Shown here: one piece after another, positions 3,405 to 48,353 of the stretch
How the letters are laid out: each line of letters begins with the position of its first letter
Position numbering within the stretch: the first letter of the stretch is position 1
Source: a virus
Strand: one strand, 5' to 3'
UHGV virus genome: UHGV-0375936
DNA: 64,000 nt
The notes under the pieces: model-generated
Databases searched by the model: none
What the model was told of the DNA's origin: nothing
The model's input: only the letters and a program-made list of their open reading frames with translations
Translations under genes and position numbers: made by a program

Positions 3405-3406
3405 TC

Positions 3407-4141: not shown

Positions 4142-4232
4142 GTTGAATTCTCCTGTTAGTCTACATTAAAATAGTCGTAAACGTTAAAAAGAAAGACCCT
4201 CCTGTACCACGAAAGGGTACAGGAGGGGGGTG

Positions 4233-5195: not shown

Positions 5196-5220
5196 TGCTC
5201 ACCTCGGAGTATTTTTAATT

Positions 5221-6594: not shown

Positions 6595-6597
6595 TGA

Positions 6598-7221: not shown

Positions 7222-7228
7222 AAAGATT

Positions 7229-7262
7229 ACCCTACTCCTTCGGGAGTAGGGTAGCTTTTATT
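7229..7262. terminator. bidirectional Rho-independent terminator
   Basis: Perfect hairpin ACCCTACTCC-TTCG-GGAGTAGGGT between convergent genes, T-run after it. Confidence 0.6.
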
Positions 7263-7814
7263 TTAAATGTCGACTTCTAGTTTACGGTAATCGATGACGC
7301 CTTGAGCAATCATAGCAGCAACATCGTTCCAGGTACGAAAAATGAAGTAAACTGTGTCTCCGTTTAAAAAGATGTTAGATTCTTTATCCGGGAAATCATC
7401 TTCACTGAGGTAGTAGTAAGGTTTGTCGAAAGGGAAGTCGCGCTCATCAGAGGAACCAAGTACCGCATAACGATTGCCACAATCAAACAGAATCTTCCAA
7501 CCAGACAATTCACTATTAGCGTCAATACGATCGTCGATTTCAACGGTAATAGGAGAATGATCAAGAAAGCTGATTGTAACCTCTCCGTTATGCTGTCGTT
7601 TAAATCGACGAATATCTGTAGGCACAATTTCAGATGCTGCTATAAGGGAATAAAGTTGTGTTACGGTGATCTTTTTGTAAACACTATCGCCATCCCACAA
7701 ACGATCAAATAAGAAATTAGCCAGGAAATTTATATCCTTTAAACGTGAACGGAAAACAGAACCACGACGAATACCGTAAGCCAGATGAGTTAAATATTCA
7801 GACGATGGAAACAT
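7263..7814 (-). CDS. hypothetical protein
   Basis: 183-aa ORF; conserved RBS context (AGGAGTATTAAAATG). Confidence 0.6.
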   Translation of the reverse strand: MFPSSEYLTHLAYGIRRGSVFRSRLKDINFLANFLFDRLWDGDSVYKKITVTQLYSLIAASEIVPTDIRRFKRQHNGEVTISFLDHSPITVEIDDRIDANSELSGWKILFDCGNRYAVLGSSDERDFPFDKPYYYLSEDDFPDKESNIFLNGDTVYFIFRTWNDVAAMIAQGVIDYRKLEVDI

Positions 7815-7835
7815 TTTAATACTCCTAAGGTGGGA

Positions 7836-7868
7836 AAAAGAATTAACCCTACTCCCGGAGGAGTAGGG
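7836..7868 (-). terminator. Rho-independent terminator
   Basis: Hairpin CCCTACTCC-CGGA-GGAGTAGGG with A-run on plus strand (U-run on minus transcript). Confidence 0.55.
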
Positions 7869-7876
7869 GATTTAAA

Positions 7877-8812
7877 TTACTTTTTGGTTTGACCCAGGTT
7901 TTCAAGAACCAGCTCACGAATATACTTCTGAGTTCGTTTCTTCGGCGGTAGAGCCATAAGAGTGTCAACGATTCCCTGGCCGCCGATAACCTTGCTGACG
8001 AGTTGTTGAACTTGGAAGAGTTCTGCTTCTTCGTCACTGATCTCATTAGCTTGGTCTTTCTGACACAACGCTTCTACCAGGTCAGCTACGGATATTTCAT
8101 TTTCGTCACCGGGGAAATCCAGGTTTAACGATTCGAAAACATCACGCTTAACGAGTACAGATTTCAGATCATCGTAGTCTTCACAAACGGCGACTTCTGT
8201 GCCAGGTACCGTTTCTTCTTCGTCATGATCTCCTTCCTCAGGGTTATGGTATTTTACCAACGGTGAGTTGAACAACGGTCCTTTTTTCATCAGCACAAAA
8301 CCTACATGTGACCAACTGCTCAGGATGAAATAGACAGCAGACCCACTTAATCCGATATTACCTTGACGTAGGTCAAACGCAATTTCTTGACGGCGATAAA
8401 TCTGCCCTAAATCAAAGAAAGCTTCGTCACGAGCTGCAACAACATCATACTGATTCGCACCTTGTTCTACCACAACGAACCAATTACCGTGATCCGTTGT
8501 ATGTTGGTAAGGCACGAAAGATGGGTCATCTCTCATGATGGGATTAATGGCGATGGTCGAATACAGCATTCCCATAGAGAAGTTGAACGTATTCCTTTCT
8601 TGAAACGCAGTGAAATTATCAATTGGAAGGATTAAGGAGGTACGTTCGATAGAGAAAACCGTTTCCTGTGTAATCGACGTTGGATTTCTGCCCAGGAAAT
8701 AACCACGTAAAAAGTCGGCGGTCGCACCCACATTGGTTTGCATCGTCTTGCTGCTATGGTAACGACGTAGCGTGTTAGCCAGTTCGTGAATTACTTCAGA
8801 TGGAAAAGTCAT
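7877..8812 (-). CDS. hypothetical protein
   Basis: 311-aa ORF with RBS. Confidence 0.6.
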   Translation of the reverse strand: MTFPSEVIHELANTLRRYHSSKTMQTNVGATADFLRGYFLGRNPTSITQETVFSIERTSLILPIDNFTAFQERNTFNFSMGMLYSTIAINPIMRDDPSFVPYQHTTDHGNWFVVVEQGANQYDVVAARDEAFFDLGQIYRRQEIAFDLRQGNIGLSGSAVYFILSSWSHVGFVLMKKGPLFNSPLVKYHNPEEGDHDEEETVPGTEVAVCEDYDDLKSVLVKRDVFESLNLDFPGDENEISVADLVEALCQKDQANEISDEEAELFQVQQLVSKVIGGQGIVDTLMALPPKKRTQKYIRELVLENLGQTKK

Positions 8813-35055: not shown

Positions 35056-35093
35056 GACAGACTGCCTGCGGGCAGTTGTGTGTCCGTAGGTAA

Positions 35094-35130
35094 CCCCTCC
35101 CTGTAATGGGGAGGGGTATCCATTTTATTT
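35094..35130 (+). terminator. intergenic hairpin / possible attenuator
   Basis: CCCCTCCC-TGTAAT-GGGAGGGG hairpin with T-rich tail between fibre genes 2 and 3. Confidence 0.45.
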
Positions 35131-35149: not shown

Positions 35150-38100
35150 ATGCCGAGAGAAGACGCGGCGCAGTTTAACGGTACGCTAAGCACAACGACG
35201 TACCCTAACCGATTTAACGTGGTCATTCCGCCTGAAGGACCTTTTTATCGTATCGGATTAAAACTCACAGTAGCCGACGATACCGCGCCTAACGGACGTC
35301 GTACTCTGATTGAGGGGTTGGACTACTATTTAGGCTATTACTTTAAAGAACTCGCAGAAGCTGAACAAGATCAGATTTATGGCGGGTTTATGTTGCTTAC
35401 TGCAACAGAAATCGAATATGAGATTTTAGGGGTAGCACGTCAATACCGTGTACCGCAATCTGAAATCGGGAAGTTCTTAGTTCGTACTGACCTGAAAGAC
35501 CCACGTAACGTGGACTGGTCAGAGTTAATGGCGTATGCGCCAGTTATTCAACCTATCGATCCCCCTGCTAACTTAGAAGAAGCTATCCTGAGGGATGAGG
35601 TTGTTAAAGCGTTAAACGATATCCGTAAGAAAATCATTCAACGTTCAACAGAGTTAGATGCAGCGTTTACCGAAGTCACTAACCTGATTTACGAGAACGG
35701 TAAAAAGATTTTCGATGAAGAACTATACCAACACCACCTTAATCCTAACGCTCACCAGTATACGACCACTGATGTTGGTGCTCTTCCGGTTTTGGGACGT
35801 GCTGTTGACGCGACAAAAGCGTTTGGACTGACGATTGACCAGCTGGCTACGCTGATGGGTTCGGCGGGTATTGAGCAATCAGACGTTGATCAGTTAATAG
35901 GTGAAGCCCTCGGCACTGTTTACGGTCGTTGGGGCAGCACGAACGGTAACGAACTGACGTTTAAAACCGCAGGCGGACACATCATCAGTATCCGTGGTGA
36001 TAAGTGGTTAATTACCTCACCGCAACCGTTGGTGATTAAAGCAGACCAGGACAACAACGAATCGGGTTTGGCGGTTGAATTTAGTGCGGGGCTGAATACG
36101 CTTTGGGTACACTCTGGGACAGAACAAGATGTATTAGCGCCGGTTTACAACTCTGTGTATTTGGTTACACCAGAAATGGTGAACATGTACCTTACGTCTG
36201 TAACGTTACTTGAAGCAAATGCCTATTTCAAACCATCAGACACCGTAAAACCATACGGTACAGCGAAGCAGTCTAATCCGCTAACGTTGAACGCGAATAT
36301 CCCCACAGCAACCGAGTCGGTTTATGGGGTGTTTTCGATTACGAATATCGCAACCTCCGTAGCACTAGGCACTGCTATTTCCCAAAAGGCGGTGACCGAA
36401 TTAAAAGACCGGTTAGACTTGTACGTTGACGATGACTACACGGTTAACGGTAAAGGGTTTGTTAAGACAGGCGATAAAATGGTGTTAACCTTAACGAAAA
36501 CCGATTTCGGTATCGATAAGATGGATAACACCACGCCGATCGCTAAACCGGTAACAAAAGCGTTAGCGAATGTGCTGAAAAATAAAAGTTTGAAGGTGCA
36601 TACGCACACTACCGCCGATTTGGATAATGTCCCGATTGGTAGTGCGACCGTGGATGGTATCTTACAGCTGTGGGATGCGATTGATACCACGAATGATAAA
36701 GCCGTCACATCACGCCAAGGGTGGTTGTTCGCAAAAGAGATTAAGAAGGTCTCTGATAAACTGAATACCCTCTTGCCCGCATGGACAACGTCCGGGAGCA
36801 AATACACCAATAATTCGATATTGCCGATCTTGTCGATGGGTAATTACGAAGGTTATGGTAAAAACATGGATGCGCTCCAGATGGTTATAGGGGTACAACA
36901 AGGTAAGCTTTATGCTTTAATTAGTTCTAAATCTGCCCTTCCGGGAACTGAGGGTATTTATTACGCTGTTGCTGGGTTAAAAAACGACAAAAGTCTCGGT
37001 GAAATTTACAAAACAACTTTCCGTTATAAGCCGAAAGGGTTAGAGACGAATTATCCGGGGGTGGAACTAAAAGAAATTACCGTTACTGGCACCGAAGCAT
37101 TTATAGCGAAGGGCAGCGACGATAATTATTATTTAGTTAAACTGAACGGTTCAATGGATTACACCAAACATACCGATGTCAGGTTGGTAACTTTCTCAGA
37201 ATTTGTTTCAGAAACAACATGGGAATTTGTGCCGAATATGTTCATGGATCGTGTGGTCATAGCCGATAACGGCGTCTATGTTTTGCGTACGATGCTAATG
37301 GCCGATCTGAAAAACAATAGTCTGGTGGACTACATTAAGGATACTCCGCAACCTATGTTCCGTGTTGGGTTATTGCGACTTAATAAAACCGATCGGTTTG
37401 AACAGGTTGATTTAAGCTCTACACGAAAAATCGGTAAGTGTGCCGATTTGGTTGAACCTGGCGCGTTCGATGTAGATAATCCGAATACGAAGCGTCTTGC
37501 CTACTTCACTGCGGAAGGCAAAGCGTTGTGGACAGTGAATTTACAATTAACTAGAGGGGTGTCAAGATGGATAACGCCCGTTGTTAAGGACGGTCACTTG
37601 TTAACCGTCGGCGTGTCTGGCGTTTGTCTTGGTTTTTCTTCAACGAAAGGTACCACATTCGGGCCATGGAATGGTGCTTATCGTCTCGACCTATTAACCG
37701 GGGAGGTTGGGTTAGAGACAACTAACATCTTCCCAATCAAAATCGATACTACAGGTTGCTACTTAAAAGACGGAACAAAAATAGAGCTGAAATGGAAATG
37801 GGCTACTCGAAGTTCTGGCTATATGGCCGACAATAGAATCTGTGTCGGTGATATGGTTTATTCTTGCTGCTGTTCGACAGAAAAACAACTTGCACCGTCT
37901 CTCCATTACCAGAAACTCCCAGAAGGAGTTAGTTATCTGGACTATGTTAAGTTGAGTGCGGGGTATGAGGGGCAATCTACGTTTGAAAATCGGATAAACC
38001 CTGTGGTGGGTTCGGTGTGGAAACCGTCTATGACCTTCCCATTGTTCTTCCCAGGAACAAACAAAGTATGGCTTAAACATCAAAAAACGGCTTATTTCAT

Positions 38101-40336
38101 TGAAGCCGAATATGATAAAGATACGACTTATGGTTATCCTGGATACGGCGGGTTTGGACCAACATCCCGCCGTGTTGAAAAAAAAGCGAACGAATACGGC
38201 GTATTGACAAATATACCGCTGGTTGTTACGCCAGACATACCGAAAGGTCTACTAGATGGGGCTTACTTTATCGGTGCTGAAAGTAAACCATGTAAAGTTG
38301 TTTACGGTACCACTACGGTGGCTAGTGATCGGTTGTCTATCGATGCGGCAGAATGGGCGAAGTTGACTAATATTGTTCAGTCCAGCCAGTTCTCTGGGGC
38401 TTCTAACGGCAACGCCTATGAGCGGATTAGCGTAGCTAAGACCAAAAAGAACAACTACAGTTTGTCCTTTTGGGTGCTTGGTCAAACGATGTCTGGTGGT
38501 CCGCTTTGTATCGCGATAGTGAGTCTTATCTATAAAGACACTGACGGGGTAAATAAGTTTGCTTTTTACTTCTTTCAGGTAAAACCGACTATAACCAACG
38601 GGGTCATAAGGTTCGTTAGTTCGGAAGCGAGAATGATGACGTTCAGGGAAAAAGTGGCCAGTAACGCCATTAATCTCTCACCCACAGCTTTTAATGGTGA
38701 ACTTAAACAACGCTCCGGTCAAGTTTTCCTTTATTCGCAAGACGGACAAAAGTTCAGATTCTCAATACATAACCTGGTTGGCGGGAATCTTGTAGGATCA
38801 GAGATTTCTTTTGCTTTTGGGATAAACTTGACTAAAAAAGGAGAATGGTTTACCGGCGAAATTCATCGGGCGTGGGGCTATACGTATACGCTGAATAATA
38901 CATCTGAAGTCTATATACCCGATCTCTCGGGCATCGCGCTATTGACTTGTAACTCGGAAGATTTAAACGAGTTGTATCTCGGTGGCGAACAGTATAGAAT
39001 CTCTGATTTGTTTAACAAAAAATATACTGTTATCGATAAGATTATTATTGGCGGCGTACAAACACAGAGCGGTTGGAATTTCTATCTGACGGAGGAAACC
39101 GAGTTAAGTTTTGGAAATAAAAGATATACCGTTCCAAGATGGTCCGTTGATTTAAGCGATGAATTCCCGACTAATCACGCTAACCAGACATTCTACGTTT
39201 ATGCTGAAGTGGTCGGTTCTACTGCCCAATACCGCATCGGTTTAGAGCAGTTAGCTGATACCTCGTCGAGACTGTTTGTTGGGACAGTAACCACTGATTC
39301 GAACCGTATTACGGATATCAGTATCGATAAAGTAAAACGGTTAGGTCGTGTAAAAGAGCTGGAAAATCATGCCTCGGTTGTTGATCAGCACGATGTGGCG
39401 CAGGCGTTCGACAGGAAAACTGGTCCACTATTAACAGTGGTTAATAAACCCGTTAAAGCCATTACAGCATCTGCGAGCAAGGGTGCTGGGTATGTCGATG
39501 GCCAGAAATGGAATACGTTGTCCGGGATTGCAACGCGGCCCAGGTTGCCGGTACAGGAAACCTATTCAGGTTATAAAAGTATCAGCAGGGTGGCGTATGA
39601 GAACTGCGCTGACCAGTTCTGGCAGAAAGCGGTTGCTGCGAACGTTGCAGCGGCTACTGCTTCTGAGAACAAACAAGCAGCAACCGCGAACATGAAGTGG
39701 TTGGGTGCGTATACGAAACCGACTACCGGCGAGTATGCATATCTGGCATTGAGTCTGCGTGTTAAAGTACCTGGCGATCCTGGTACTACTAATCGTCGAC
39801 TGAAAATCAGGCTTGCGGCCCCGACAGGTATAACTCAAGTTCGTTACGGGCTAAATCAGTCTGGCGGTACGATGACTGAACAGACAGTAACGCTAACTGC
39901 TAACAGTTACCTGGAAAAAGAACACGCGGGATTTAAGCCAGCCGCCGAAGTCCGCCTTCATGCTACGTTTGTCATTCCAAAAAATGAATACGATAGCTAC
40001 CGGACCAAATTTGGTGCTGTTCAGCTGATTGACGTTGAGACGAACACTGTCATTAAACAGACAGATATCGACACACCGTTTATCGTGTACACCGCCACAG
40101 AGCAAGCGGCACAATCTGGTTTGGTGTATAAAGCGGTTAAGAGTCAGTTTCGTCAACTCCCGGCTCAACCTGTCGTCATTGTAACTGATGGACAGACAGG
40201 GACTACACCACCGGTGAAAACCGCATATTCTGACGGCACGTTAACGGTCTACGTGGCAACCACGTACGATGCGGTTAACCCAGCACAAACTCGCGATATC
40301 GATAAGCTCCAGTTCAATCTTATGTTTACATCTTAA
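35150..40336 (+). CDS. tail-fibre-like protein (paralog 3 of 4)
   Basis: 1728 aa; AGGAG RBS; shared N-terminal domain (PPEGPFYRIGL...GLDYYLGYY). Confidence 0.65.
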   Translation: MPREDAAQFNGTLSTTTYPNRFNVVIPPEGPFYRIGLKLTVADDTAPNGRRTLIEGLDYYLGYYFKELAEAEQDQIYGGFMLLTATEIEYEILGVARQYRVPQSEIGKFLVRTDLKDPRNVDWSELMAYAPVIQPIDPPANLEEAILRDEVVKALNDIRKKIIQRSTELDAAFTEVTNLIYENGKKIFDEELYQHHLNPNAHQYTTTDVGALPVLGRAVDATKAFGLTIDQLATLMGSAGIEQSDVDQLIGEALGTVYGRWGSTNGNELTFKTAGGHIISIRGDKWLITSPQPLVIKADQDNNESGLAVEFSAGLNTLWVHSGTEQDVLAPVYNSVYLVTPEMVNMYLTSVTLLEANAYFKPSDTVKPYGTAKQSNPLTLNANIPTATESVYGVFSITNIATSVALGTAISQKAVTELKDRLDLYVDDDYTVNGKGFVKTGDKMVLTLTKTDFGIDKMDNTTPIAKPVTKALANVLKNKSLKVHTHTTADLDNVPIGSATVDGILQLWDAIDTTNDKAVTSRQGWLFAKEIKKVSDKLNTLLPAWTTSGSKYTNNSILPILSMGNYEGYGKNMDALQMVIGVQQGKLYALISSKSALPGTEGIYYAVAGLKNDKSLGEIYKTTFRYKPKGLETNYPGVELKEITVTGTEAFIAKGSDDNYYLVKLNGSMDYTKHTDVRLVTFSEFVSETTWEFVPNMFMDRVVIADNGVYVLRTMLMADLKNNSLVDYIKDTPQPMFRVGLLRLNKTDRFEQVDLSSTRKIGKCADLVEPGAFDVDNPNTKRLAYFTAEGKALWTVNLQLTRGVSRWITPVVKDGHLLTVGVSGVCLGFSSTKGTTFGPWNGAYRLDLLTGEVGLETTNIFPIKIDTTGCYLKDGTKIELKWKWATRSSGYMADNRICVGDMVYSCCCSTEKQLAPSLHYQKLPEGVSYLDYVKLSAGYEGQSTFENRINPVVGSVWKPSMTFPLFFPGTNKVWLKHQKTAYFIEAEYDKDTTYGYPGYGGFGPTSRRVEKKANEYGVLTNIPLVVTPDIPKGLLDGAYFIGAESKPCKVVYGTTTVASDRLSIDAAEWAKLTNIVQSSQFSGASNGNAYERISVAKTKKNNYSLSFWVLGQTMSGGPLCIAIVSLIYKDTDGVNKFAFYFFQVKPTITNGVIRFVSSEARMMTFREKVASNAINLSPTAFNGELKQRSGQVFLYSQDGQKFRFSIHNLVGGNLVGSEISFAFGINLTKKGEWFTGEIHRAWGYTYTLNNTSEVYIPDLSGIALLTCNSEDLNELYLGGEQYRISDLFNKKYTVIDKIIIGGVQTQSGWNFYLTEETELSFGNKRYTVPRWSVDLSDEFPTNHANQTFYVYAEVVGSTAQYRIGLEQLADTSSRLFVGTVTTDSNRITDISIDKVKRLGRVKELENHASVVDQHDVAQAFDRKTGPLLTVVNKPVKAITASASKGAGYVDGQKWNTLSGIATRPRLPVQETYSGYKSISRVAYENCADQFWQKAVAANVAAATASENKQAATANMKWLGAYTKPTTGEYAYLALSLRVKVPGDPGTTNRRLKIRLAAPTGITQVRYGLNQSGGTMTEQTVTLTANSYLEKEHAGFKPAAEVRLHATFVIPKNEYDSYRTKFGAVQLIDVETNTVIKQTDIDTPFIVYTATEQAAQSGLVYKAVKSQFRQLPAQPVVIVTDGQTGTTPPVKTAYSDGTLTVYVATTYDAVNPAQTRDIDKLQFNLMFTS

Positions 40337-40376
40337 CGCCACGAGACAAGGACGTCTCGGATTAAGGAGAGTGGCC

Positions 40377-41576
40377 ATGGCCTCCATTGTATACCAATAC
40401 CCTTTAGATTTAACGGGAACCCTAACCTCTAACGCCGTGGAGCGTCAGGTTACGTTAGGTACAGGTAAAGTTAACCGTGCGTTTGCTTTTCCTGACGGTC
40501 CGTTTTATGCTGATACGTTCCGCTTGCGGGTTGCTAACCGCCCAGATGCGACGTATGAGCGCGGAACGGACTATGAGTTGATTTTTGCACACCCGGCTTA
40601 CGAGAAATTGACGAAGAACCGGGAAGTGGTAATGGCGGTTGTTGTAACGAACACCGCGATTCCGACCGATATCACGGTATCGGCGCAAGTAGTCGGGGGC
40701 CCGCAGTCGGCAAACGTGACTGCGATAGAACAGGCGATTGCTGAGTTGAATCTCGATAATCGAACTGTTGGCTTTAAAGACTTGCGAAATGTTCCTGATA
40801 CATTTCCTTCGGCACCAACGTATAAAGACGTCGGCGATATTTACGGCTTCGAATACATCATTACAGTGCTCGCCGGTATTAAAGATGCGATAACTGCTGG
40901 CGATGCTGTACAGCTTGAGAACATCAAAGCGATTCTCGAAAGCCTGAAAAACGATTTCCTGGACGCGCTGAACGCGCACATTAACGCCACGGGTAACGTC
41001 CACCATCTGGATATTCACCAGGTTAACGGGTTAACAGAAACGGAGATCCGTGCACTGATCCGTGACGTACAGTCTGCCATCGATGCAACCATTACTGATA
41101 TTAATGCGTTGAAGAAAGCAGACGAAGCGTTAGGAAAACGTATTGATGCTGTTGTCAAATCTCTGGAAGCGTGGAACGACCAACTTAACGTCGTTGCACA
41201 AAACTACCAGAAAATGGCACTGGCAATGGCGAACCTAAACTCGTTAGTGTTACAGTTACAGAAAAATATCAACGATCTGAGCACCAAACTCAACCAAGCG
41301 ATTCAACGTATTGCTGCGTTAGAACAGCGGGGTAATGAGTCCGATCAGAAAATTGATAAACTGCAACAAAACCTGGATGCGCTTAAACAGCAGGTTAATA
41401 ATAACACGAACGCAATCAGTCAGGCGAATCAGAACCTACAAAACCATATTGCGGCAGACAACCCACACACAGGCTATCTCCACAAGAAATACGGTGGTGT
41501 GGTTCAGGCTCCAGTGCACGTTAACGCTAACTTGACGTCCCGTGATGACGTTCAGGCAGAAGCGGGTACGAAATAA
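40377..41576 (+). CDS. tail-fibre-like protein with coiled coil (paralog 4 of 4)
   Basis: ATG after AAGGAG; N-terminus FPDGPFYADTFRL...GTDYELIF shares the fibre N-domain; long heptad-like C-terminal region. Confidence 0.6.
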   Translation: MASIVYQYPLDLTGTLTSNAVERQVTLGTGKVNRAFAFPDGPFYADTFRLRVANRPDATYERGTDYELIFAHPAYEKLTKNREVVMAVVVTNTAIPTDITVSAQVVGGPQSANVTAIEQAIAELNLDNRTVGFKDLRNVPDTFPSAPTYKDVGDIYGFEYIITVLAGIKDAITAGDAVQLENIKAILESLKNDFLDALNAHINATGNVHHLDIHQVNGLTETEIRALIRDVQSAIDATITDINALKKADEALGKRIDAVVKSLEAWNDQLNVVAQNYQKMALAMANLNSLVLQLQKNINDLSTKLNQAIQRIAALEQRGNESDQKIDKLQQNLDALKQQVNNNTNAISQANQNLQNHIAADNPHTGYLHKKYGGVVQAPVHVNANLTSRDDVQAEAGTK

Positions 41577-41643
41577 CTTTATTACAGGAGGAACTATGCT
41601 TATGGGCGTAGTCCTCCATTCTTTTTTATTTTAAGGATACGTG

Positions 41644-42039
41644 ATGGCGATCAGTGTTAAAAATGTACGTGACCGAATCACCAACGTAGAGAACCAAATG
41701 GCAACTGGCCCACGTGTTGATCCGCAAGTTGCGTCGAAAGCACATAATGCCGCCGACACTTTTTCGGGTTGGACGCCAAGTCGGTTAGACTGCGGGGGAA
41801 GTTGCAGCTGGACGTGCTCAAACGGCTGTACGCACGGCTGTACGAGTTGTTCGGGCACCTGTACGTCAGTATGTGTAGGTAGCTGCTCCTCTGCGTGCGG
41901 TAACCAGTGTACTGGATGTAGTTCAACATGTTCCGGCGGCTGTTCAGGTTGCAGTGGGACCTGTGGTGGTGCTTGCTCGGGCCGTTGTTCTACGGGTTGT
42001 TCTGGTGCTTGCTCTGGTGGCTGTTCTGGCCCAACCTAA
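41644..42039 (+). CDS. Cys-rich peptide A, candidate RiPP precursor
   Basis: AAGGA RBS; about 50-aa leader then about 80-aa core with about 21 Cys, mostly C-x3-C (CGGSCSWTCSNGCTHGC...); track ORF starts 3 nt earlier at GTG. Confidence 0.6.
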   Translation: MAISVKNVRDRITNVENQMATGPRVDPQVASKAHNAADTFSGWTPSRLDCGGSCSWTCSNGCTHGCTSCSGTCTSVCVGSCSSACGNQCTGCSSTCSGGCSGCSGTCGGACSGRCSTGCSGACSGGCSGPT

Positions 42040-42049
42040 GAGGTGAAAA

Positions 42050-42448
42050 ATGGCAATTGGATTACCTGCGCTACAAGCGCGGCTAAATAACATTGACAAC
42101 ACTGCATTGAAGAATACGGGTGCAGTGCAAAACTATATTCGTGGGAAAGCGACGAACAACGCAGACTTATTCGGTGGACAAGCTCGCAACCATTACGACT
42201 GTGGTGGGAGCTGTAGCTGGACCTGTTCGAGCTGTTCTGGTGGTTGTACAGGGAACGCATCAGGCGGCTGTGGTTCTTCGTGTTCTGCAAACTGTGTATC
42301 AGGTTGCAGCGCAGGCTGTAGCGGATGTTCGAATACATGTTCTGGTGGCTGCTCAGGAAGCTGTACGGGGAGTTGTTCTAACTCGTGTGTGGGAAACTGT
42401 TCTTCAGGCTGCTCGGGCAGTTGTTCTGGTGGGTGTTCTGGGAGGTAA
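42050..42448 (+). CDS. Cys-rich peptide B, candidate RiPP precursor
   Basis: GAGGTG RBS, 10 nt after peptide A stop; core DCGGSCSWTCSSCSGGC... with about 20 Cys. Confidence 0.6.
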   Translation: MAIGLPALQARLNNIDNTALKNTGAVQNYIRGKATNNADLFGGQARNHYDCGGSCSWTCSSCSGGCTGNASGGCGSSCSANCVSGCSAGCSGCSNTCSGGCSGSCTGSCSNSCVGNCSSGCSGSCSGGCSGR

Positions 42449-42450
42449 TT

Positions 42451-42657
42451 GTGATTAGCCTTAAGAACCTTCGTGATCGATTAGTAACAGCGGAAGGGTA
42501 TATTACGACCGCTAACGCAAACAACTATATTGCAAACCAGGGCACCGTGTCTTCAACCAATAACCTTGCCGGTTTACCTTTAAGCCATTATAACTGTAAC
42601 GGCGGATGTAGCTGGTCGTGTAGCGGTAGCTGTAGTAAAGGCGCGGGGGGAAGGTAA
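42451..42657 (+). CDS. short Cys-rich peptide C, candidate RiPP precursor
   Basis: GTG start 5 nt after GGAGG, 2 nt after peptide B stop; leader VISLKNLRDRL resembles peptide A; core NCNGGCSWSCSGSCSKG. Confidence 0.5.
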   Translation: MISLKNLRDRLVTAEGYITTANANNYIANQGTVSSTNNLAGLPLSHYNCNGGCSWSCSGSCSKGAGGR

Positions 42658-42806
42658 CTAAGCCCTCCAGTGGTAGTATGTCTATTACGCAATAACCGAG
42701 TTAATCGTACGGGTTTACTACTGAGTTTCAAGTTACCGGTAGGCAATGGTGCGGTGGTTTCTATACCCTGAATGTCCGTTTGACCGTGAAATAATTGGAG
42801 CAATCA

Positions 42807-43694
42807 ATGAAGAATGATTTACATTTAGCATACAAAACAATTTTCAATCATCCACTTCACATTTCTTCCCCTGATTCCGTACGTGCACACTTAGCAGATG
42901 AAGTTCGTCTGCTGACTCAGTTGCCGGGCGAATGGCCTAAAGTACGCGGACGTTTCTTTACCGATCGTAAAAACTATCGTGTAGAAAATACGTTTAAGAT
43001 TCGTGATCTGACGGCAGAAAGTGTGGTGGTCTTTACCGGTGACTCCGAGTTGCGTGGTAAACTGGTTGCGGGTAAATATTTCTTTAGTGACGGGATTTTG
43101 AATAACTCCGTAGATATGGAATTGTTCTTTACCCCATTTGAAGAAATGGGCGCAAAACCGGTTGCCCGTCGTTGGTGGTCACCGGATTACTTAGGCTCGT
43201 TCCCGTATTTCTTTACCCTGGTAACACCAGAAACGAAGAACTATTTCGATACGGAATCGTATATCGAAATTGAAGGGTACGAAGCGTTAGGGATTAATTG
43301 CTTAGCGGATTTAATGGCGTATAGCTATAAGTTCGTGTGGGATCGTGAACGTTCCGTGTGGGTTGCCCTGACGGATGAACATGAAATCACAAAACGCATC
43401 CGTAAGCCTTGGATGCAGCATTTGATTCAAACGCGTATTGGCGAGCATCCGTCAACAGAAGCGGATCTGGCAAAACTCCTTAGTTTCTTAATGACGAAAG
43501 TCACGTTAACTGACGAAGAGAAAGCAGCAGTGTCGGCGGTGTTGGACCGTAACGTAACGTTAGCGGATTTAGAACGTTTAAATGTCCGTTATAAAGACCT
43601 TAACCGTATTTTGGAAGCGTATAACTCTCCATTCTTGTTAACCCCTGGTGCTAACGTAGACGACGATCCTTTGTTCGCCATTGATTATATTTAA
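42807..43694 (+). CDS. hypothetical protein, candidate RiPP accessory
   Basis: ATG at 42807 with GGAG RBS; 296 aa between precursors and radical SAM genes; no motif recognised. Confidence 0.55.
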   Translation: MKNDLHLAYKTIFNHPLHISSPDSVRAHLADEVRLLTQLPGEWPKVRGRFFTDRKNYRVENTFKIRDLTAESVVVFTGDSELRGKLVAGKYFFSDGILNNSVDMELFFTPFEEMGAKPVARRWWSPDYLGSFPYFFTLVTPETKNYFDTESYIEIEGYEALGINCLADLMAYSYKFVWDRERSVWVALTDEHEITKRIRKPWMQHLIQTRIGEHPSTEADLAKLLSFLMTKVTLTDEEKAAVSAVLDRNVTLADLERLNVRYKDLNRILEAYNSPFLLTPGANVDDDPLFAIDYI

Positions 43695-43715
43695 AAACGA
43701 CCGGAGTCACCTGCA

Positions 43716-44639
43716 ATGACAACCAATGCAGAACCAAGGTTATCGAATCGTTTATACGATAAACCCACCGTATTGTCCGTAGTCGCTACGTCCAAGTGTA
43801 ACCTGGATTGTAGCTTCTGCGGTGGAGCCTATTACATGAATCGTGAAGATTCTCCGCGAGAGTTTCAACGTGAGCGAATTTTGGAAGCGCTGGAAGCTAA
43901 TCCAACCATTACCGAAATTCAGTGGACGGGTGGTGAGCCATTACTGGCAACCCGTAAAATTGAGGCGTTTGTTGACGAATTAAAAGTGATTCGTCCAGAA
44001 CTCAAACACCAGTTGTATACCAATGGCTTAAAGATGCGTAAATCGCATCTCCCGTTGCTAAAACAGTTTGACAATGTCTACGTTAGCATCGATGGGTTTA
44101 AGTCGTCTGAGCGCCCGTTTATGCGCTTTATTGACGAAGGCTGTTACGAAGCACTGGAAACGATCTACGAGCTGGATAATGTCCAGACTTGGGGTGTCCT
44201 GACACGGGACCGTTTAGGGGACAAACGCTGGCACGAAGATATTATTCAGCTGCACAGCGCGATTTACCATTACGGTTTCCGTGCAATGACGTTACTCTTA
44301 GATGCGAAAATGCCAAAACCTTTATCGCCTGACCACGTCATGAACTTTATTTACGGCTACTATCAGGTTCAGGATAACATTGAACGACTGAATGTAGTAA
44401 ATAGTCGTGAATGCGGCTTTACAGTAAGTAAAGTGTTTGAAGAAGGGTGTAACGTTTGCAGCGAAAGTCTTTGGATTAATGCAGACGGCGGTGAGCACCA
44501 ACTCCAGAATGCACCTAACGTTCTGGAATCGGGATGTAACCAACTGGCCTTCTCTATCGGTGTAGAGGCGTACGAATATATTCGTCGCGTAGTGATGGCA
44601 GGGCGTAATAGAGGGGCGGCAAATGAGTCAAGTAAATGA
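43716..44639 (+). CDS. radical SAM enzyme
   Basis: CNLDCSFC (CxxxCxxC) near N-terminus, GGEPLL SAM-binding motif, four more Cys in the C-terminal third. Confidence 0.8.
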   Translation: MTTNAEPRLSNRLYDKPTVLSVVATSKCNLDCSFCGGAYYMNREDSPREFQRERILEALEANPTITEIQWTGGEPLLATRKIEAFVDELKVIRPELKHQLYTNGLKMRKSHLPLLKQFDNVYVSIDGFKSSERPFMRFIDEGCYEALETIYELDNVQTWGVLTRDRLGDKRWHEDIIQLHSAIYHYGFRAMTLLLDAKMPKPLSPDHVMNFIYGYYQVQDNIERLNVVNSRECGFTVSKVFEEGCNVCSESLWINADGGEHQLQNAPNVLESGCNQLAFSIGVEAYEYIRRVVMAGRNRGAANESSK

Positions 44640-45945
44640 ATTCCCTAAGCAGTTAACGTATCAGATCGTAACCAACCTTTCGTGTAACCTGGACTGCGAA
44701 TATTGTTACGAACGTAAGTACCCGCGTAACAACAAAGCGGCGGATATTGTTGATTTCTTACACGCCTGTTTTGAACGTGATAAAAACGAACCGAATGTTG
44801 AAGTTATTATCGACATTATCGGTGGTGAGCCGTTCATGCAGCCTAAACTGCTGCTGGCTGCGTTTGAAACCGCTGAGCAGTTGTGTAAAGAACACAACCG
44901 ACCGTTTATGTTTAGTATTTCCACGAACGGAACGCTGTTAGATCGTCCGTTGAACCGTGAGATCGTAGAACGTTGGAAAGATAAACTTTCGGTTGGGGTT
45001 TCGATTGACGGCTTACCTGAGTCCCATGACCGTTATCGTATCTTCACAACAACACGCCAGGGTTCTTACGAAGCCGCAGTACGTGGCTATAACTACTTAA
45101 AAGAGGTTGGCATTGCAGAGCTCGGCGTAAAAGCAACCTTTACGTTAGAAACGCTGCCGTTCTATGCTGCGGGGATGAAGTCATTAATTGACATTACTGG
45201 CGGTGGGACAATTTCTGGAAACGTAACTTTCGAAGACGTTATGCCGCGTAGCATGGCGACATCAATCGCTTTACAGATGATGGATGTGATCGATTATTGG
45301 GTTGAGAAAGGATTACACACCAACCCACGTAATATCTTATCGCACATCATTCCAGAAGGGTTGGATTTCGATACGATTTGGGAACCGAACTGGCGTGACC
45401 AGTTACTGTATAATGACACCGTACGGTTGAACCCAGAACGTTTACGTCCGTTCTGTGGGACGTTAACGCACATGACGTGCTTAGGATTTGACCGTAAGAT
45501 CTTTGGCTGTAACCGCTTTATGTCAACGGTAACGTCGCGTTCTGCGGTGTTTGAGTTGGTAGGTCGGGAATTCGTCAGTCTGGACAACGGTAAGCTGCTA
45601 GAAGAGATTCAAACGCAATATACCAACTACCCAGAGACCTGTTTAGGTTGTCCGATGAAACACGCTTGTGGTAGCTGTGCTGCGGCTTCTTACGAGAACG
45701 GGGAAGGAACGTTAGAAGACCGTAAGGCGTATCACGCTGAACGACGTCAGTGCGGCTGGACGACAGCGAAACTGATGGTGGCGGAATACTGGAAACAGAA
45801 GATGGGTACGACGTCAGCAAAAGCGTTCCATGACACGAGCATGTGTTATTGCCCACGCTGTGTTCGTGAACGTGCCCAAAAGGAAAAATTATTAAGAGAA
45901 GCCAAAGATGAAACCAATTCTGATCAACAATATTACGAAGCGTAG
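44623..45945 (+). CDS. radical SAM enzyme with SPASM-like domain
   Basis: CNLDCEYC, IGGEPF, STNGTLL, and C-terminal CLGCPMKHACGSCAA Cys cluster; 17-nt overlap with upstream radical SAM gene. Confidence 0.8.
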   Translation: MSQVNEFPKQLTYQIVTNLSCNLDCEYCYERKYPRNNKAADIVDFLHACFERDKNEPNVEVIIDIIGGEPFMQPKLLLAAFETAEQLCKEHNRPFMFSISTNGTLLDRPLNREIVERWKDKLSVGVSIDGLPESHDRYRIFTTTRQGSYEAAVRGYNYLKEVGIAELGVKATFTLETLPFYAAGMKSLIDITGGGTISGNVTFEDVMPRSMATSIALQMMDVIDYWVEKGLHTNPRNILSHIIPEGLDFDTIWEPNWRDQLLYNDTVRLNPERLRPFCGTLTHMTCLGFDRKIFGCNRFMSTVTSRSAVFELVGREFVSLDNGKLLEEIQTQYTNYPETCLGCPMKHACGSCAAASYENGEGTLEDRKAYHAERRQCGWTTAKLMVAEYWKQKMGTTSAKAFHDTSMCYCPRCVRERAQKEKLLREAKDETNSDQQYYEA

Positions 45946-46480
45946 AATTCGACTTCTGGATAAGTTTCTGGAAAACAGTAAGCTATTCGGTTGTTATGTG
46001 GTGATTAACGGTGAAGATTTTACCGATGACGTAAAACGCTTACTGATTCGTCACGGCGTGACTGTAATCATCCCAATGTACTGCACCGAACTTACTGACC
46101 TGTCGGTCGCGGAAATTGAAAAACGTAACCCAGGGTTTGAAGAACGGGTATTGGATTTCCCACGTCACAAAATTGCGTTTCTACGCCGCTCTTTAAGCGA
46201 ACCCAGCGCAGAATCTATCACTGTGTTGGCATTGTCCTTCCCAGGCATTACTATCTTCGCAACACGTAACCCGAACTCACCGATTGATGGGTTTTACGAT
46301 GAGCGGGAGAAATTTAATAGCGTGATTTTTCCTGAACTAACGCCAGAAGAATGTCAGGGTATCCGTATCGATTGGGAATCGGACTTCGACACAAGATTCC
46401 GTCATATCGATTTTGAACTGTTAATCGAATTAGGGTTGATTAAAGGAGACGATGAATGTCTGCTACTGGTGAAGGCTTAA
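45908..46480 (+). CDS. hypothetical protein
   Basis: 190-aa ORF overlapping the end of the radical SAM gene. Confidence 0.5.
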   Translation: MKPILINNITKRRIRLLDKFLENSKLFGCYVVINGEDFTDDVKRLLIRHGVTVIIPMYCTELTDLSVAEIEKRNPGFEERVLDFPRHKIAFLRRSLSEPSAESITVLALSFPGITIFATRNPNSPIDGFYDEREKFNSVIFPELTPEECQGIRIDWESDFDTRFRHIDFELLIELGLIKGDDECLLLVKA

Positions 46481-47127
46481 CGAAAGAAGAAATCCGTCGC
46501 CGTTATTTTGCGCACGATTTACCGATTGACCGTCATGGTAACTACATGGAGAAAATCGGTAGCGAAGATCACGGCCGTACAGGGTTTTGTGCATTACTGC
46601 ACTATAAGTTGATTGATGGGATGTCTGATCGCGAAGCATTGGAGCAAATGCGTAACTACGACATGTCTGAAATCGAAGCACGGTTTACGCTACAGAAAGC
46701 GAAAGACTTTGTTAACGACACGCTGGGAATTGACCTGGAAGAGATTCGTACGGGGTTACGTTCCACCGTACGGTACATCTTTACCGATGTTCAGAAAATT
46801 CTAAGCGCTTTGGAATTCCGTTATCAGGATGCGCGCTATGCTGAGATTCAGGTAGGTGATTTCACTTTCCAGGCAGATGAGAAGTCACAGGTAGCACTGA
46901 GTCGTTATATCCAGTCAGAAACTGCGCCAGCGTATTGGTTAACGGCTAACAACACCCGTATCGAACCGTTTACGTTAGAACAGTGCAAGACGTTGCTGGC
47001 AGCAATCGTTGAGCGTGATCAAAGACTACACCACGCAATGTCTGAGCAGAAAAGAGAAGTCAGGGCTTGGGCTGAAGCACGTGATTACGATTCGATAAAA
47101 GCGTTTGCGTTAGAGCAAGGGCTGTAA
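46456..47127 (+). CDS. hypothetical protein
   Basis: 223-aa ORF overlapping previous gene; last gene before bidirectional terminator. Confidence 0.5.
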   Translation: MSATGEGLTKEEIRRRYFAHDLPIDRHGNYMEKIGSEDHGRTGFCALLHYKLIDGMSDREALEQMRNYDMSEIEARFTLQKAKDFVNDTLGIDLEEIRTGLRSTVRYIFTDVQKILSALEFRYQDARYAEIQVGDFTFQADEKSQVALSRYIQSETAPAYWLTANNTRIEPFTLEQCKTLLAAIVERDQRLHHAMSEQKREVRAWAEARDYDSIKAFALEQGL

Positions 47128-47134
47128 TCGACAG

Positions 47135-47190
47135 CGAAAAAAACAGTATACCTACCTCCCGTAATAGGAGGTAGGTATTTTTATTTTTTC
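47135..47190. terminator. bidirectional Rho-independent terminator
   Basis: 12-bp perfect stem ATACCTACCTCC-CGTAATA-GGAGGTAGGTAT flanked by A-run and T-run. Confidence 0.7.
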
Positions 47191-47721
47191 TTAGGACGTA
47201 AAACCGTCCAGCTCACCGTTGGTGGTGGCCAGGTCAATACGATTATCAACAACCTTCGGCGTAATTACGAAAGTTGCCATTACACCTGGCTTATAACGGA
47301 GGTTCTTTTCAGTAACGGTACACGTTACCGTACGCAGAGTGACGCTATCGTGTTCGTCTTTCTGGTCTTCGGTGGTGTACTCAGCGTCACCAGGTGCGAT
47401 AGAGTCGTCAGGTTTTACTTTATTGATGTAAAACTGTAATCGGTCGCGTAGTTCGTTTTCTCCAGTCCAGAGAGCCAAATCGTCCGTTACCTCAATGCGT
47501 CCGACAACGCCAGGTTCCAGACGATCGTAATGCAGTTCGATTGCGCCTTTAAAATTTTCAGACTCTGTACGTGCGGTCATGGTAACTTTGGTATTTTTAT
47601 CGCCCTTTTCAAGAGCGACAGGTTGACCAAAAGTTACCTCTTTATCAGTGACCTGATGCGGTAGCTCTGTGTTAGCAGCATTATAAAGCGCAACTAACAT
47701 CATCTGGTTAGTAGCTGCCAT
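47191..47721 (-). CDS. putative virion protein, paralog family B
   Basis: Shares NTKVTMTARTESENFKG...HYDRL and NGELDGFT with 47787..48353. Confidence 0.5.
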   Translation of the reverse strand: MAATNQMMLVALYNAANTELPHQVTDKEVTFGQPVALEKGDKNTKVTMTARTESENFKGAIELHYDRLEPGVVGRIEVTDDLALWTGENELRDRLQFYINKVKPDDSIAPGDAEYTTEDQKDEHDSVTLRTVTCTVTEKNLRYKPGVMATFVITPKVVDNRIDLATTNGELDGFTS

Positions 47722-47786: not shown

Positions 47787-48353
47787 TTACTCTTTAGGCG
47801 CTGGTGCGGTGAAGCCATCCAGTTCACCTTCCAAACCGCTCAGTGCTACTTTCTCAAGAGCTGGAGGGGTAACTTTATACGTCGCAACAGTACCTGGCAG
47901 GAACTTCAAGTGGCCAGCCACAACCGTTACCACGTAAATGGTTTTGCCTTCTTCTTCACGAGAGATAGTTTGCAGGTCGTTTTCACCGAACTCGTCATCG
48001 GTGTACCCTTTCTCAGCCATGGCTGCGTTAACTTTCGCCAGGATTTTCGTCGGTGAATCGAAATCGGTAGTAGGTGCAGTTACTTCAACTTCACCAACGA
48101 TGTCGCAGGAAAGACGAGTATAGTGGAATTCTTTCTCGCCTTTGAAGTTCTGGCTTTCTGCCTTGGCGGTCAGAGTAATTTTAGTGTTGCGGCCAGCTTC
48201 TCCGGTGAACTCAGCGACAGCACTAAAATTAACATCATTTACAGTCAGCTTAGAAGCAGTTTGGTTGTTTTTAGCAATTACAATCTCGATAAGCTGCTGT
48301 TGAAAAGTTTTAGCCATTGTTTTTACCTCGTAAGTAGTATGGGTGGTTTGCAT
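47787..48353 (-). CDS. putative virion protein, paralog family B
   Basis: Paralog of 47191..47721. Confidence 0.5.
   Translation of the reverse strand: MQTTHTTYEVKTMAKTFQQQLIEIVIAKNNQTASKLTVNDVNFSAVAEFTGEAGRNTKITLTAKAESQNFKGEKEFHYTRLSCDIVGEVEVTAPTTDFDSPTKILAKVNAAMAEKGYTDDEFGENDLQTISREEEGKTIYVVTVVAGHLKFLPGTVATYKVTPPALEKVALSGLEGELDGFTAPAPKE

Follow-up and report, generated by a model that had tools for sequence, protein, structure and literature searches.

A radical SAM/SPASM enzyme encoded beside Cys-repeat fibre-type proteins in a SPN3US-like jumbo phage is a candidate maturase of fibre tips

What might a radical SAM enzyme that resembles peptide maturases be doing next to the baseplate and fibre genes of a giant phage? 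This question is raised by rSAM2, which is encoded within a 64-kb stretch of DNA (the window, by which we mean everything that was analysed) that is from a SPN3US-like jumbo phage. The gene lies in a block on one strand, where baseplate/fibre genes are followed by three Cys-repeat genes, an accessory gene, rSAM1 and rSAM2:

35093..35117, + strand: terminator-like hairpin, 5' of the fibre block
35150..40336, + strand: 1728-aa baseplate/fibre structural protein, syntenic counterpart of SPN3US gp168 (open reading frame, synteny)
40377..41576, + strand: virion structural protein with a coiled-coil region, SPN3US gp167 homolog (phrog_2163, E=6e-104)
41644..42039, + strand: Cys-repeat protein A, 131 aa, candidate substrate (phrog_6085, E=2e-40)
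42050..42448, + strand: Cys-repeat protein B, 132 aa, 20 Cys, candidate substrate (phrog_6085)
42451..42657, + strand: Cys-repeat protein C, 68 aa, GTG start, 4 Cys, CNGGCSWSCSGSC (phrog_6085)
42807..43694, + strand: accessory protein, 295 aa, conserved with the two-rSAM module (phrog_8030)
43716..44639, + strand: radical SAM enzyme 1 (rSAM1), 307 aa (Pfam Radical_SAM, 53 bits)
44623..45945, + strand: radical SAM/SPASM enzyme 2 (rSAM2), 440 aa, ATG start
45908..46480, + strand: 190-aa protein overlapping rSAM2 by 38 nt (phrog_7988)
46456..47127, + strand: DUF4376 protein, 223 aa (PF14301, E=5e-11; phrog_8169)
47148..47178, no strand assigned: bidirectional terminator-like hairpin with a 12-13 bp stem, end of the block

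The limits of the block are set by the two hairpins, both from a consensus scan only, and the one at 35093..35117 is a possible left end of the transcription unit. A scan for sigma-70 promoters was uninformative, with 13 sites against 18.8 expected. The 35150..40336 gene occupies the position of the 5184-nt SPN3US_0168, and gp168 is a tail baseplate/fibre virion protein in SPN3US (PMC5105663, PMC5694885). The start of its downstream neighbour was set at Met37 of the listed open reading frame, after the SPN3US ortholog; gp167 was found in SPN3US particles, without assignment to the head (PMC5694885, supplementary table 1). The 86 proteins detected in the virion of that phage include gp167 and gp168 but none of gp161-166 (PMC5694885), an absence that would be expected of maturation enzymes. 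As for the remaining genes, rSAM1 displays CNLDCSFC and a C-terminal three-Cys motif (C245, C248 and C274), the alignment revealing no full SPASM domain; it accompanies rSAM2 in homologous loci L001-L021 and is fused with it into one gene in L020. The accessory protein has no structural neighbour that we could find, i.e., its fold is without a solved relative. The phrog_7988 protein is limited to the jumbo clade among the homolog loci compared, and the DUF4376 protein weakly matches PHROG tail-fibre/tail-protein families, including phrog_1807 (tail fiber).

Judging from its sequence and predicted structure, rSAM2, which belongs to a giant phage of enterobacteria, is a genuine radical SAM/SPASM enzyme, in which three features can be placed:

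44683..44706, + strand: CxxxCxxC motif (C21, C25, C28), predicted site of the SAM-cleaving [4Fe-4S] cluster (homolog alignment, PF04055)
45454..45753, + strand: SPASM domain, residues 278-377 (TIGR04085, CteB/anSME alignment, AF2 model, Cys conservation)
45844..45861, + strand: CYCPRC (C-x-C-x2-C), an extra Cys motif (homolog alignment)

All the motifs quoted in the original prediction were located in the open reading frame: CNLDCEYC (residues 21-28), IGGEPF (66-71) and STNGTLL (100-106), then CLGCPMKHACGSCAA (340-354), CGW (377-379) and CYCPRC (408-413) towards the C-terminus. Pfam Radical_SAM (PF04055) matches rSAM2 with 57 bits, above its gathering threshold of 29.5. When 27 homologs with identity down to 27% were aligned, C21, C25, C28, G67, G68, E69, N102 and T104 were invariant, as were S127, D129, G130 and six further Cys (C296, C340, C343, C349, C352 and C377), with C278 and C286 conserved in at least 90%. 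Since these Cys, Gly, Asn and Thr positions are invariant in 27 homologs, the motifs are not there by chance. The SAM-binding residues (G67, G68, E69, N102, T104, S127, D129 and G130) match their equivalents in CteB and anSME in the alignment. Differences from the SPN3US ortholog are spread 76/40/218 over codon positions 1/2/3, which indicates purifying selection on rSAM2. The gene starts at 44623, upstream of the end of the rSAM1 open reading frame at 44639, confirming the 17-nt overlap that had been noted, and a GAGGGG Shine-Dalgarno-like stretch lies 6 nt 5' of its ATG. The predicted coupled expression of rSAM1 and rSAM2 is therefore plausible.

The original prediction also held that rSAM2 ends in a SPASM-type domain. 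SPASM domains display a seven-Cys motif, C-x9-15-G-x4-C ... C-x2-C-x5-C-x3-C ... C, of which rSAM2 carries a variant: C278-x17-C296 is interrupted by an extra C286, giving the layout C278-x7-C286-x9-C296 ... C340-x2-C343-x5-C349-x2-C352 ... C377, and the final spacing is x2 instead of x3, as in TIGR04115-type enzymes. The SPASM profile search returned a match of residues 278-365 to positions 1-86 of the 93 in NCBIfam TIGR04085 (E=1e-5), which at 25.8 bits is 1.2 bits short of the cut-off of 27, and no match to Pfam PF13186 at E<=10, with either the whole protein or its C-terminal 183 aa. Profile alignments of rSAM2 to CteB, TIGR04115 and PapB are full length, and the family profile finds CteB with E=7e-37, SPASM region (CteB residues 330-428) included. 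The AF2 model (pLDDT 88.3, pTM 0.86), which has a beta-hairpin at residues 284-294, has CteB, ChlB, anSME, SuiB, TigE and SkfB as its top Foldseek neighbours, the alignments to CteB, ChlB and anSME covering 395-420 columns and that to SuiB about 400. Together with the Cys conservation, these findings uphold a predicted SPASM fold with eight conserved Cys, which would be enough for two auxiliary [4Fe-4S] clusters. Of the Cys pattern first proposed for this domain, C-x2-C-x5-C-x2-C stands, but CYCPRC falls outside it. The latter is kept, as C-x-C-x2-C, only in the jumbo-phage clade (P0012-P0080) and is largely missing from the more distant homologs; going by this distribution, it is a clade-specific addition.

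Proteins A, B and C, which sit 2-3 kb upstream of rSAM2 on the same strand, are its candidate substrates, and within the window CxxxC runs are found in these Cys-repeat genes only. Protein A begins with a fibre-like N-terminus of ~50 aa, after which its 21 Cys are arranged in C-[ST]-G-x units; its ATG has an AAGGA Shine-Dalgarno-like stretch on its 5' side, and the protein weakly matches TIGR04114, for which the window Cys-repeat proteins score 19.4 (protein B) and 14.4 bits against a cut-off of 20. Protein C, a candidate substrate or nucleating paralog, has GGAGG 5 nt before its GTG, and the SPN3US ortholog likewise starts with GTG. Composition counts show Ser or Thr at repeat position +1 in ~76% of units, and the repeats of A and B are free of both Asp and Glu. 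The N-terminal halves of all three contain Lys and Arg, e.g., ...NYIRNKATNNADLFAGQGR. Differences from SPN3US at the three codon positions (A, 37/24/73; B, 28/31/80; C, 10/4/39) display a third-position bias that supports their frames, so the genes are real. A DNA tandem-repeat artefact can be rejected because the arrays detected by TRF are short (<=2.7 copies of 12 nt) and the codon bias points to selection on protein. Since the correct sequences of A-C are missing from the annotated SPN3US protein set used for virion proteomics, that analysis was probably blind to them. The three had been taken for peptides: Cys-repeat proteins are indeed encoded upstream, but they are better read as tail-fibre-type proteins belonging to the fibre block, not free RiPP precursors.

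To which known maturases does rSAM2 compare? Its scores stay well short of the curated cut-off in every named family, and its best matches, TIGR04115 and PapB, are both peptide maturases, in keeping with the peptide-modifying function originally proposed. TIGR04115 is the enzyme of the CXXX-repeat system, a bioinformatically defined system with TIGR04114/TIGR04117 targets; the families were reportedly defined by Haft and Basu in 2011, and we found no characterisation of a product in the literature searched. Residues 10-371 of rSAM2 align to positions 3-345 of the 359 in the TIGR04115 profile with 114.7 bits, which, against a cut-off of 350, makes rSAM2 a member of a sister clade. In both cases the enzyme is without an N-terminal extension and is encoded next to a protein in which every fourth residue is Cys, and rSAM2 shares its C-x2-C-x5-C-x2-C spacing with the enzyme of locus L024 (CFNCQVTSGCGWC), a bona fide TIGR04115 member (434.8 bits). 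Elsewhere, TIGR04115 scores are 294-307 bits (L031 and L045) or 153-169 bits (L013 and L021). Viral loci of the TIGR04115 type have Cys-repeat open reading frames that match TIGR04114/04117 and, like the window, adjoin baseplate/fibre genes, e.g., the baseplate wedge and fibre genes upstream in L031. In contrast to them, the window clade possesses another rSAM enzyme as well as a conserved accessory protein, and a fibre-type junction motif comes before its repeat.

PapB, the freyrasin ranthipeptide maturase (NF047865), is the top-scoring characterised family, with 116.8 bits for a cut-off of 340. In PapB and rSAM2 alike, the rSAM core begins at the N-terminus and substrate Cys are at i, i+4, although the candidate substrate in the window is a structural protein with ~20 Cys. 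According to PMC9413430, PapB forms Cys-Asp or Cys-Glu thioethers. Since the repeats of A and B contain no Asp or Glu, Cys-Asp chemistry of the PapB type is ruled out for them, and the acceptor must differ. Catalytic-site proximity profiling (PMC10288494) provided no simple rule applicable to rSAM2. The closest solved structure, both in sequence and in fold, is that of the SCIFF thioether maturase CteB (PDB 5WGG/5WHY), with E=5.8e-14 for the single sequence and E=2.8e-15 by Foldseek over 402 columns, although rSAM2 reaches only 59.5 bits with the SCIFF maturase profile TIGR03974, whose cut-off is 425. The SPASM domain of CteB holds two auxiliary clusters, and an N-terminal domain of ~100 aa places the rSAM motif of CteB at residue 105. 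In rSAM2 this motif begins at residue 21, which leaves no room for an N-terminal (RRE) domain; family-library scans of the gene block found no RRE, PqqD or protease domain, and no leader-recognition domain or RRE was detected in any module protein. The phage family further differs from CteB by the extra conserved C286 and by its last spacing of x2, not x3. CteB has an open iron site for a substrate Cys; if all eight SPASM Cys ligate clusters, rSAM2 would have no such site. The cross-linking of a structural protein would have a functional precedent in QhpD, a SPASM rSAM enzyme that makes intrachain Cys thioethers in a protein subunit, not in a free peptide, although its family (TIGR03906) scores 61 bits on rSAM2 against a cut-off of 453, and its substrate and context are unrelated.

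These comparisons also bear on the possibility that rSAM2 acts on the same CxxxC fibre proteins by another chemistry, i.e., 1) formylglycine formation from Cys or Ser, 2) epimerisation, or 3) a C-C cross-link. The auxiliary clusters of anSME are fully ligated by eight SPASM-region Cys, and the rSAM2 family likewise has an extra Cys early in the domain and eight in total. Moreover, anSME (PDB 4K36-4K39) has the same fold and is among the top structural neighbours, the epimerase EpeE/YydG is found among the weak matches, and the prevalence of Ser/Thr at position +1 would suit such a chemistry. However, TIGR03942 (anSME) reaches only 59.2 bits on rSAM2, against a cut-off of 349 and the 115-117 bits of TIGR04115 and PapB, and the profile finds anSME with E=9e-19 but CteB, which forms thioethers, with E=7e-37. 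The block proteins scanned against family libraries contain no sulfatase, no C/S-x-P-x-R motif is found nearby, and C/S-x-P/A-x-R is absent from A, B and C. We therefore rejected the identification of rSAM2 as an anSME, and the outcome named at the start as fatal to the prediction, i.e., no SPASM match or best matches to anSME, did not materialise. Thioether substrates typically have an extreme density of Cys, and on all these grounds we consider another chemistry unlikely.

We reasoned from gene context that the Cys-repeat proteins and rSAM2 belong together. An adjacent CxxxC-repeat open reading frame is present in 77 of 80 viral loci with an rSAM2 homolog, on the same strand in 76 and upstream in 69, with a median gap of 983 bp. 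The controls were 80 generic SPASM loci from a pattern scan of genome contigs, mostly unrelated and with matches to the N-terminus only; six of them have such an open reading frame, and these six are among the closest relatives. In non-jumbo relatives, the CxxxC repeat is the C-terminus of tail-fibre proteins of 250-480 aa. For example, a Campylobacter P2-like prophage displays the order baseplate W/J/I, PF12571 tail fibre, 250-aa protein, rSAM-SPASM, rSAM and sheath, where the fibre, named 'phage tail-collar fiber protein' by NCBI, ends in GCNGCSGSCSGSC..., and a Deferribacter prophage displays a GpJ-like protein, a 302-aa fibre with 29 Cys, the accessory homolog, rSAM and rSAM-SPASM. In both, the accessory/rSAM/rSAM-SPASM module is downstream of the CxxxC-ended fibre gene. 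A junction motif, NADxLxG...Y-x-C..CSW[TS]C, is common to A-C in the window and to the fibres of L002, L019 and L021. As a separate observation, 65 phage records contain 'putative radical SAM superfamily proteins', in SPN3US-, Erwinia- and Cronobacter-type jumbo phages.

This context weighs against A-C being precursors of a diffusible phage RiPP, such as a bacteriocin or signalling peptide, in an incidental fibre neighbourhood. In favour of such precursors, RiPP maturases come nearest among the named families, A-C have a small size (68-132 aa) and a possible leader in their N-terminal part, and their incorporation into virions is deduced from synteny with fibre genes and from the fusion of the repeat to PF12571 fibres. 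Nevertheless, a repeat that ends full tail-fibre proteins, a module placed between baseplate/fibre and sheath genes in the P2-like prophage, a fibre-type NADxLxG motif in the N-termini, and the lack of a leader protease or exporter in family-library scans of the gene block make a secreted product improbable. That rSAM2 is an auxiliary metabolic enzyme for a small molecule or cofactor, with Cys-repeat proteins that bind metals or Fe-S on their own, is very hard to believe: phage rSAM genes have earlier been read as metabolic (PMC2853527) and the non-peptide SPASM enzymes BlsE and DesII are among the distant structural matches, but CxxxC open reading frames co-occur with this enzyme in 77/80 loci versus 6/80 controls, all the best families are peptide maturases, and the module is kept with fibre genes across unrelated phage types.

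By analogy with these systems, we think it reasonably likely that rSAM2 is a phage relative of the CXXX-repeat maturase system that cross-links fibre-tip proteins, probably by thioethers, and there is a comparably good chance that it is the SPASM half of a two-enzyme maturation module for the jumbo phage's own structural proteins. Thioether formation is suggested by the likeness to PapB, CteB and QhpD. In brief, late in infection the accessory protein would present the Cys-repeat regions of A, B and C to rSAM2, which would reductively cleave SAM to produce a 5'-deoxyadenosyl radical. Within a C-[ST]-G-x unit, this radical would remove a hydrogen from a carbon of the backbone or of a side chain, and the adjacent Cys sulfur would join that carbon to form a thioether, with an electron passing to the auxiliary clusters. 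The step would be repeated along the ~20 Cys of each chain, and rSAM1 might install a second set or type of links or serve as a partner subunit. The expected products are compact Cys-ladder domains, resistant to reduction and protease, whose fibre-like N-termini would fix them to the distal tips of the baseplate fibres.

A full-text search found no literature tying radical SAM enzymes to tail-fibre maturation. Such a ladder could have stayed unseen owing to routine mis-calling of the genes and to a product that would escape tryptic proteomics; an annotation fix is needed for three genes that public genomes either omit or list out of frame. It is conceivable, if somewhat doubtful, that many tailed phages (jumbo myoviruses, P2-like myoviruses and siphovirus-like prophages) finish their fibres with a RiPP-like ladder of thioether rings made by radical SAM/SPASM enzymes. 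If true, this radical cross-link would be the first that an enzyme installs in a structural protein of a virus, and the tip would be a receptor-binding or penetrating fibre end of a new type, whose maturation would rely on host Fe-S and reducing systems. It would give a role to the annotated radical SAM superfamily proteins of SPN3US-, Erwinia- and Cronobacter-type jumbo phages, might explain the radical SAM genes reported in structural clusters of other giant phages, and would place the CXXX-repeat maturase family (TIGR04114/04115) in the maturation of phage fibre proteins. It would also supply a naturally hyper-cross-linked protein scaffold, add adsorption and host-range determinants for phage engineering, and take RiPP-type radical chemistry beyond secreted peptides and into virus architecture.

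The window, which is 100% identical to the uncultured viral contig IMGVR_UViG_3300029126_000001 (225 kb), shows ~72% DNA identity to the Salmonella jumbo phage SPN3US and its relatives. Its second radical SAM enzyme, rSAM2, is orthologous to SPN3US gp163, annotated as "putative radical SAM superfamily protein 1", and has protein-level homologs in 65 phage records (Salmonella, Escherichia, Proteus, Erwinia, and Cronobacter jumbo phages). The gene lies in a block of eleven + strand ORFs that fill 35150-47127 with short gaps and small overlaps.

35093-35117: terminator-like hairpin (consensus scan only)
First ORF of the block, +: 1728-aa protein, ortholog of SPN3US gp168
Second ORF, +: gp167 ortholog, virion protein
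41644-42039, +: Cys-rich protein A (phrog_6085)
42050-42448, +: Cys-rich protein B (phrog_6085)
42451-42657, +: Cys-rich protein C (phrog_6085)
3' of C and 5' of rSAM1, +: accessory protein, 295 aa (phrog_8030)
43716-44639, +: radical SAM protein rSAM1, 3' of the accessory gene
44623-45945, +: rSAM2, ATG start, 440 aa
3' of rSAM2, +: 190-aa protein (phrog_7988)
Last ORF of the block, +: DUF4376 protein
47148-47178: bidirectional terminator-like hairpin, 12-13 bp stem, T-runs on both strands (consensus scan only)

SPN3US gp168 is a baseplate/fibre virion protein (PMC5105663, PMC5694885). The strong hairpin at 47148-47178 separates this fibre gene block from convergent gp160-like genes. These (47191-47721 and 47787-48353, both on the - strand) are tandem paralogs, 32% identical and both ending in ...GELDGFT. 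SPN3US gp160, which is abundant in the head and belongs to paralog family B, is a relative of the first and, by inference, of the second. SPN3US has one gp160-type copy at this position versus two in the window.

The rSAM2 ORF and every motif quoted for it in the original prediction are real and were located in the 440-aa translation: CNLDCEYC (residues 21-28), IGGEPF (66-71), STNGTLL (100-106), CLGCPMKHACGSCAA (340-354), CGW (377-379), and CYCPRC (408-413). The predicted 17-nt overlap with rSAM1 is there as well, GAGGGG stands 6 nt 5' of the rSAM2 ATG, and the two genes are coupled. For the proposed SPASM-type C-terminal domain, Pfam finds a radical SAM core (57 bits) and Fer4_12 only, with no match of its SPASM model to rSAM2, nor to the isolated C terminus at E≤10. 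The NCBIfam SPASM model TIGR04085 does match residues 278-365 (E=1e-5, 86/93 profile positions), but its score of 25.8 bits falls below the cut-off of 27. The domain is further supported by whole-length alignments to TIGR04115, a CXXX-repeat target maturase (114.7 bits), and to PapB (116.8 bits), and by a 27-homolog rSAM2 profile that matches CteB residues 105-428 (E=7e-37) and anSME (9e-19). In the profile alignment, the CteB SPASM cysteines line up with the C..C and C-x2-C-x5-C-x2-C of the rSAM2 family. An AlphaFold model built from the 27-homolog alignment is confident (pLDDT 88.3, pTM 0.86), has a beta-hairpin (284-294) followed by helices, and finds its best PDB neighbours in CteB, ChlB, anSME, SuiB, TigE, and SkfB, over ~400 aligned columns. 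Homologs down to 27% identity all keep C21, C25, C28, C296, C340, C343, C349, C352, and C377, with C278 and C286 conserved at ≥90%, so that the family has eight SPASM-region cysteines. The C-x2-C-x5-C-x2-C motif and C377 of CGW are SPASM cysteines as proposed; CYCPRC (45844-45861) lies outside the domain. It is kept as C-x-C-x2-C in the jumbo-phage clade only and could act as an additional metal site or in interactions. Taken together, comparison and modelling show rSAM2 to be a radical SAM enzyme with a predicted SPASM fold and conserved cysteines, and so support the original interpretation apart from the place of CYCPRC and the missing Pfam match.

Proteins A, B, and C, the candidate substrates, share a non-repetitive N terminus of ~50 aa followed by C-[ST]-G-x units; A has 21 Cys, B 20, and C 4. 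Their genes are real, with reading frames confirmed by codon-position bias, because divergence from the SPN3US orthologs is concentrated at third positions (37/24/73, 28/31/80, and 10/4/39 at positions 1/2/3). Public annotation of the region (41644-42657; 6950-7979 in the SPN3US locus) misses or mis-frames them: SPN3US_0166/ACQ60_gp100 covers B in the wrong frame, the related phage MET_P1_082_240 has no CDS in the interval, and the exact A and B sequences have no match in a 15-billion-protein collection. The coding DNA was also considered as a tandem-repeat array, which it is not.

A CxxxC-run ORF was found at 77 of the 80 viral-contig loci with an rSAM2 homolog (76 on the same strand, 69 upstream, median gap 983 bp), versus 6/80 generic SPASM loci of bacterial genomes, all 6 falling among the 9 most rSAM2-like. 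The most distant full-length homologs from named organisms sit within tail modules of prophages. The Campylobacter pinnipediorum module runs from baseplate W/J/I through tail fibre, 250-aa protein, rSAM-SPASM, short rSAM, DUF1353, and sheath to tube; the 384-aa fibre (PF12571; "phage tail-collar fiber protein" at NCBI) has the C terminus ...GCNGCSGSCSGSCSSGCTACSGCSGSCSGKSDGCGC. In Deferribacter abyssi, a GpJ-like protein precedes a 302-aa fibre with 29 C-terminal Cys, a homolog of the window accessory protein (E=1e-10), a short rSAM, and an rSAM-SPASM. Two motifs mark the fibre body-repeat junction, NADxLxG...Y-x-C..CSW[TS]CS, also found in A-C, and F[DN]G[ST]GD..I..G|C...C, both of which resemble common tail-fibre motifs. 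Distant viral loci (24-28% identity) have one rSAM each, which is either a genuine TIGR04115 member or close to the threshold (434.8, 307, and 294 bits), together with Cys-repeat ORFs matching TIGR04114/04117; one lies directly 3' of baseplate-wedge and fibre-like genes. Loci L001-L021 (at least 31% identity) add rSAM1, the accessory protein, or both. At L020 (IMGVR_UViG_3300028886_000034, 5131-7188), rSAM1 and rSAM2 types are fused in a single 686-aa ORF, giving Rosetta-stone-type support for the two acting together; its N-terminal half has no C-terminal 3-Cys triad of free-standing rSAM1. These findings show a tight and specific association of rSAM2 with CxxxC-repeat proteins that are tail-fibre proteins or fused to such. 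Separately, bacterial MAGs (L087 and L088, Margulisiibacteriota/Termititenax; 3081-5402) encode very long Cys-repeat proteins, 668-672 aa with as many as 47 CxxxC cysteines in a chain, adjoining an rSAM/SPASM 27% identical to rSAM2.

We propose that rSAM2 would cleave SAM reductively and abstract H from a carbon inside the Cys repeat, to which a Cys sulfur would bond in a thioether, as in PapB, CteB, and QhpD, many times along each chain. rSAM1, with CxxxCxxC and a conserved C-terminal C-x2-C...G-C triad, would make a second set of links or partner rSAM2, while the accessory protein, for whose fold no solved relative was found, would present the substrate. Once matured, the Cys-ladder proteins would make up the distal part of the baseplate fibres. 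The 86 virion proteins detected for SPN3US do not include gp161-166, an absence that fits non-structural maturation factors; that set is silent on A-C, which are not in the protein database used. The thioether chemistry, proposed by analogy, is the weakest step. The Asp acceptor of PapB is absent from the repeats, which in A, B, and C contain no Asp or Glu. In anSME, eight SPASM-region cysteines fully ligate two auxiliary clusters; if all eight are ligands in rSAM2, no iron would be left free to bind a substrate Cys as in CteB. A different reaction on these same proteins, such as formylglycine formation, epimerisation, or C-C linkage, is rather unlikely. The reading of A-C as a diffusible RiPP with no role in the virion is quite improbable and contradicted by the Cys-repeat fusions to fibre proteins. 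A metabolic rSAM2 with metal-binding neighbours is very improbable given the CxxxC association (77/80 vs. 6/80 controls).

Phage radical SAM genes have been interpreted as metabolic (PMC2853527), and those inside structural clusters termed "highly unusual" (PMC12390700). Aeromonas phage 332-Vera (PMC12390700) and Campylobacter phages CP220/CPt10 (PMC2853527) are reported to carry 8-12 such genes, some in structural clusters and with no explanation given. These giant phages gave no tblastn match to rSAM2 at E≤1e-10, and their genes, if functionally related, belong to different families. In the full-text literature searched, which takes in few subscription journals, we found no paper tying radical SAM enzymes to phage fibre-protein maturation; an earlier description may exist. 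The TIGR04114/04115 CXXX-repeat system works similarly and is related, PapB and CteB more distantly. rSAM2 falls under the curated cut-offs of the TIGR04115, PapB, and CteB families and is therefore not filed as a member. The window system differs in having two rSAMs and an accessory protein. The main difference is the setting, the candidate targets being phage structural (fibre) proteins, and the whole suggests a phage tail-fibre Cys-repeat maturation module.
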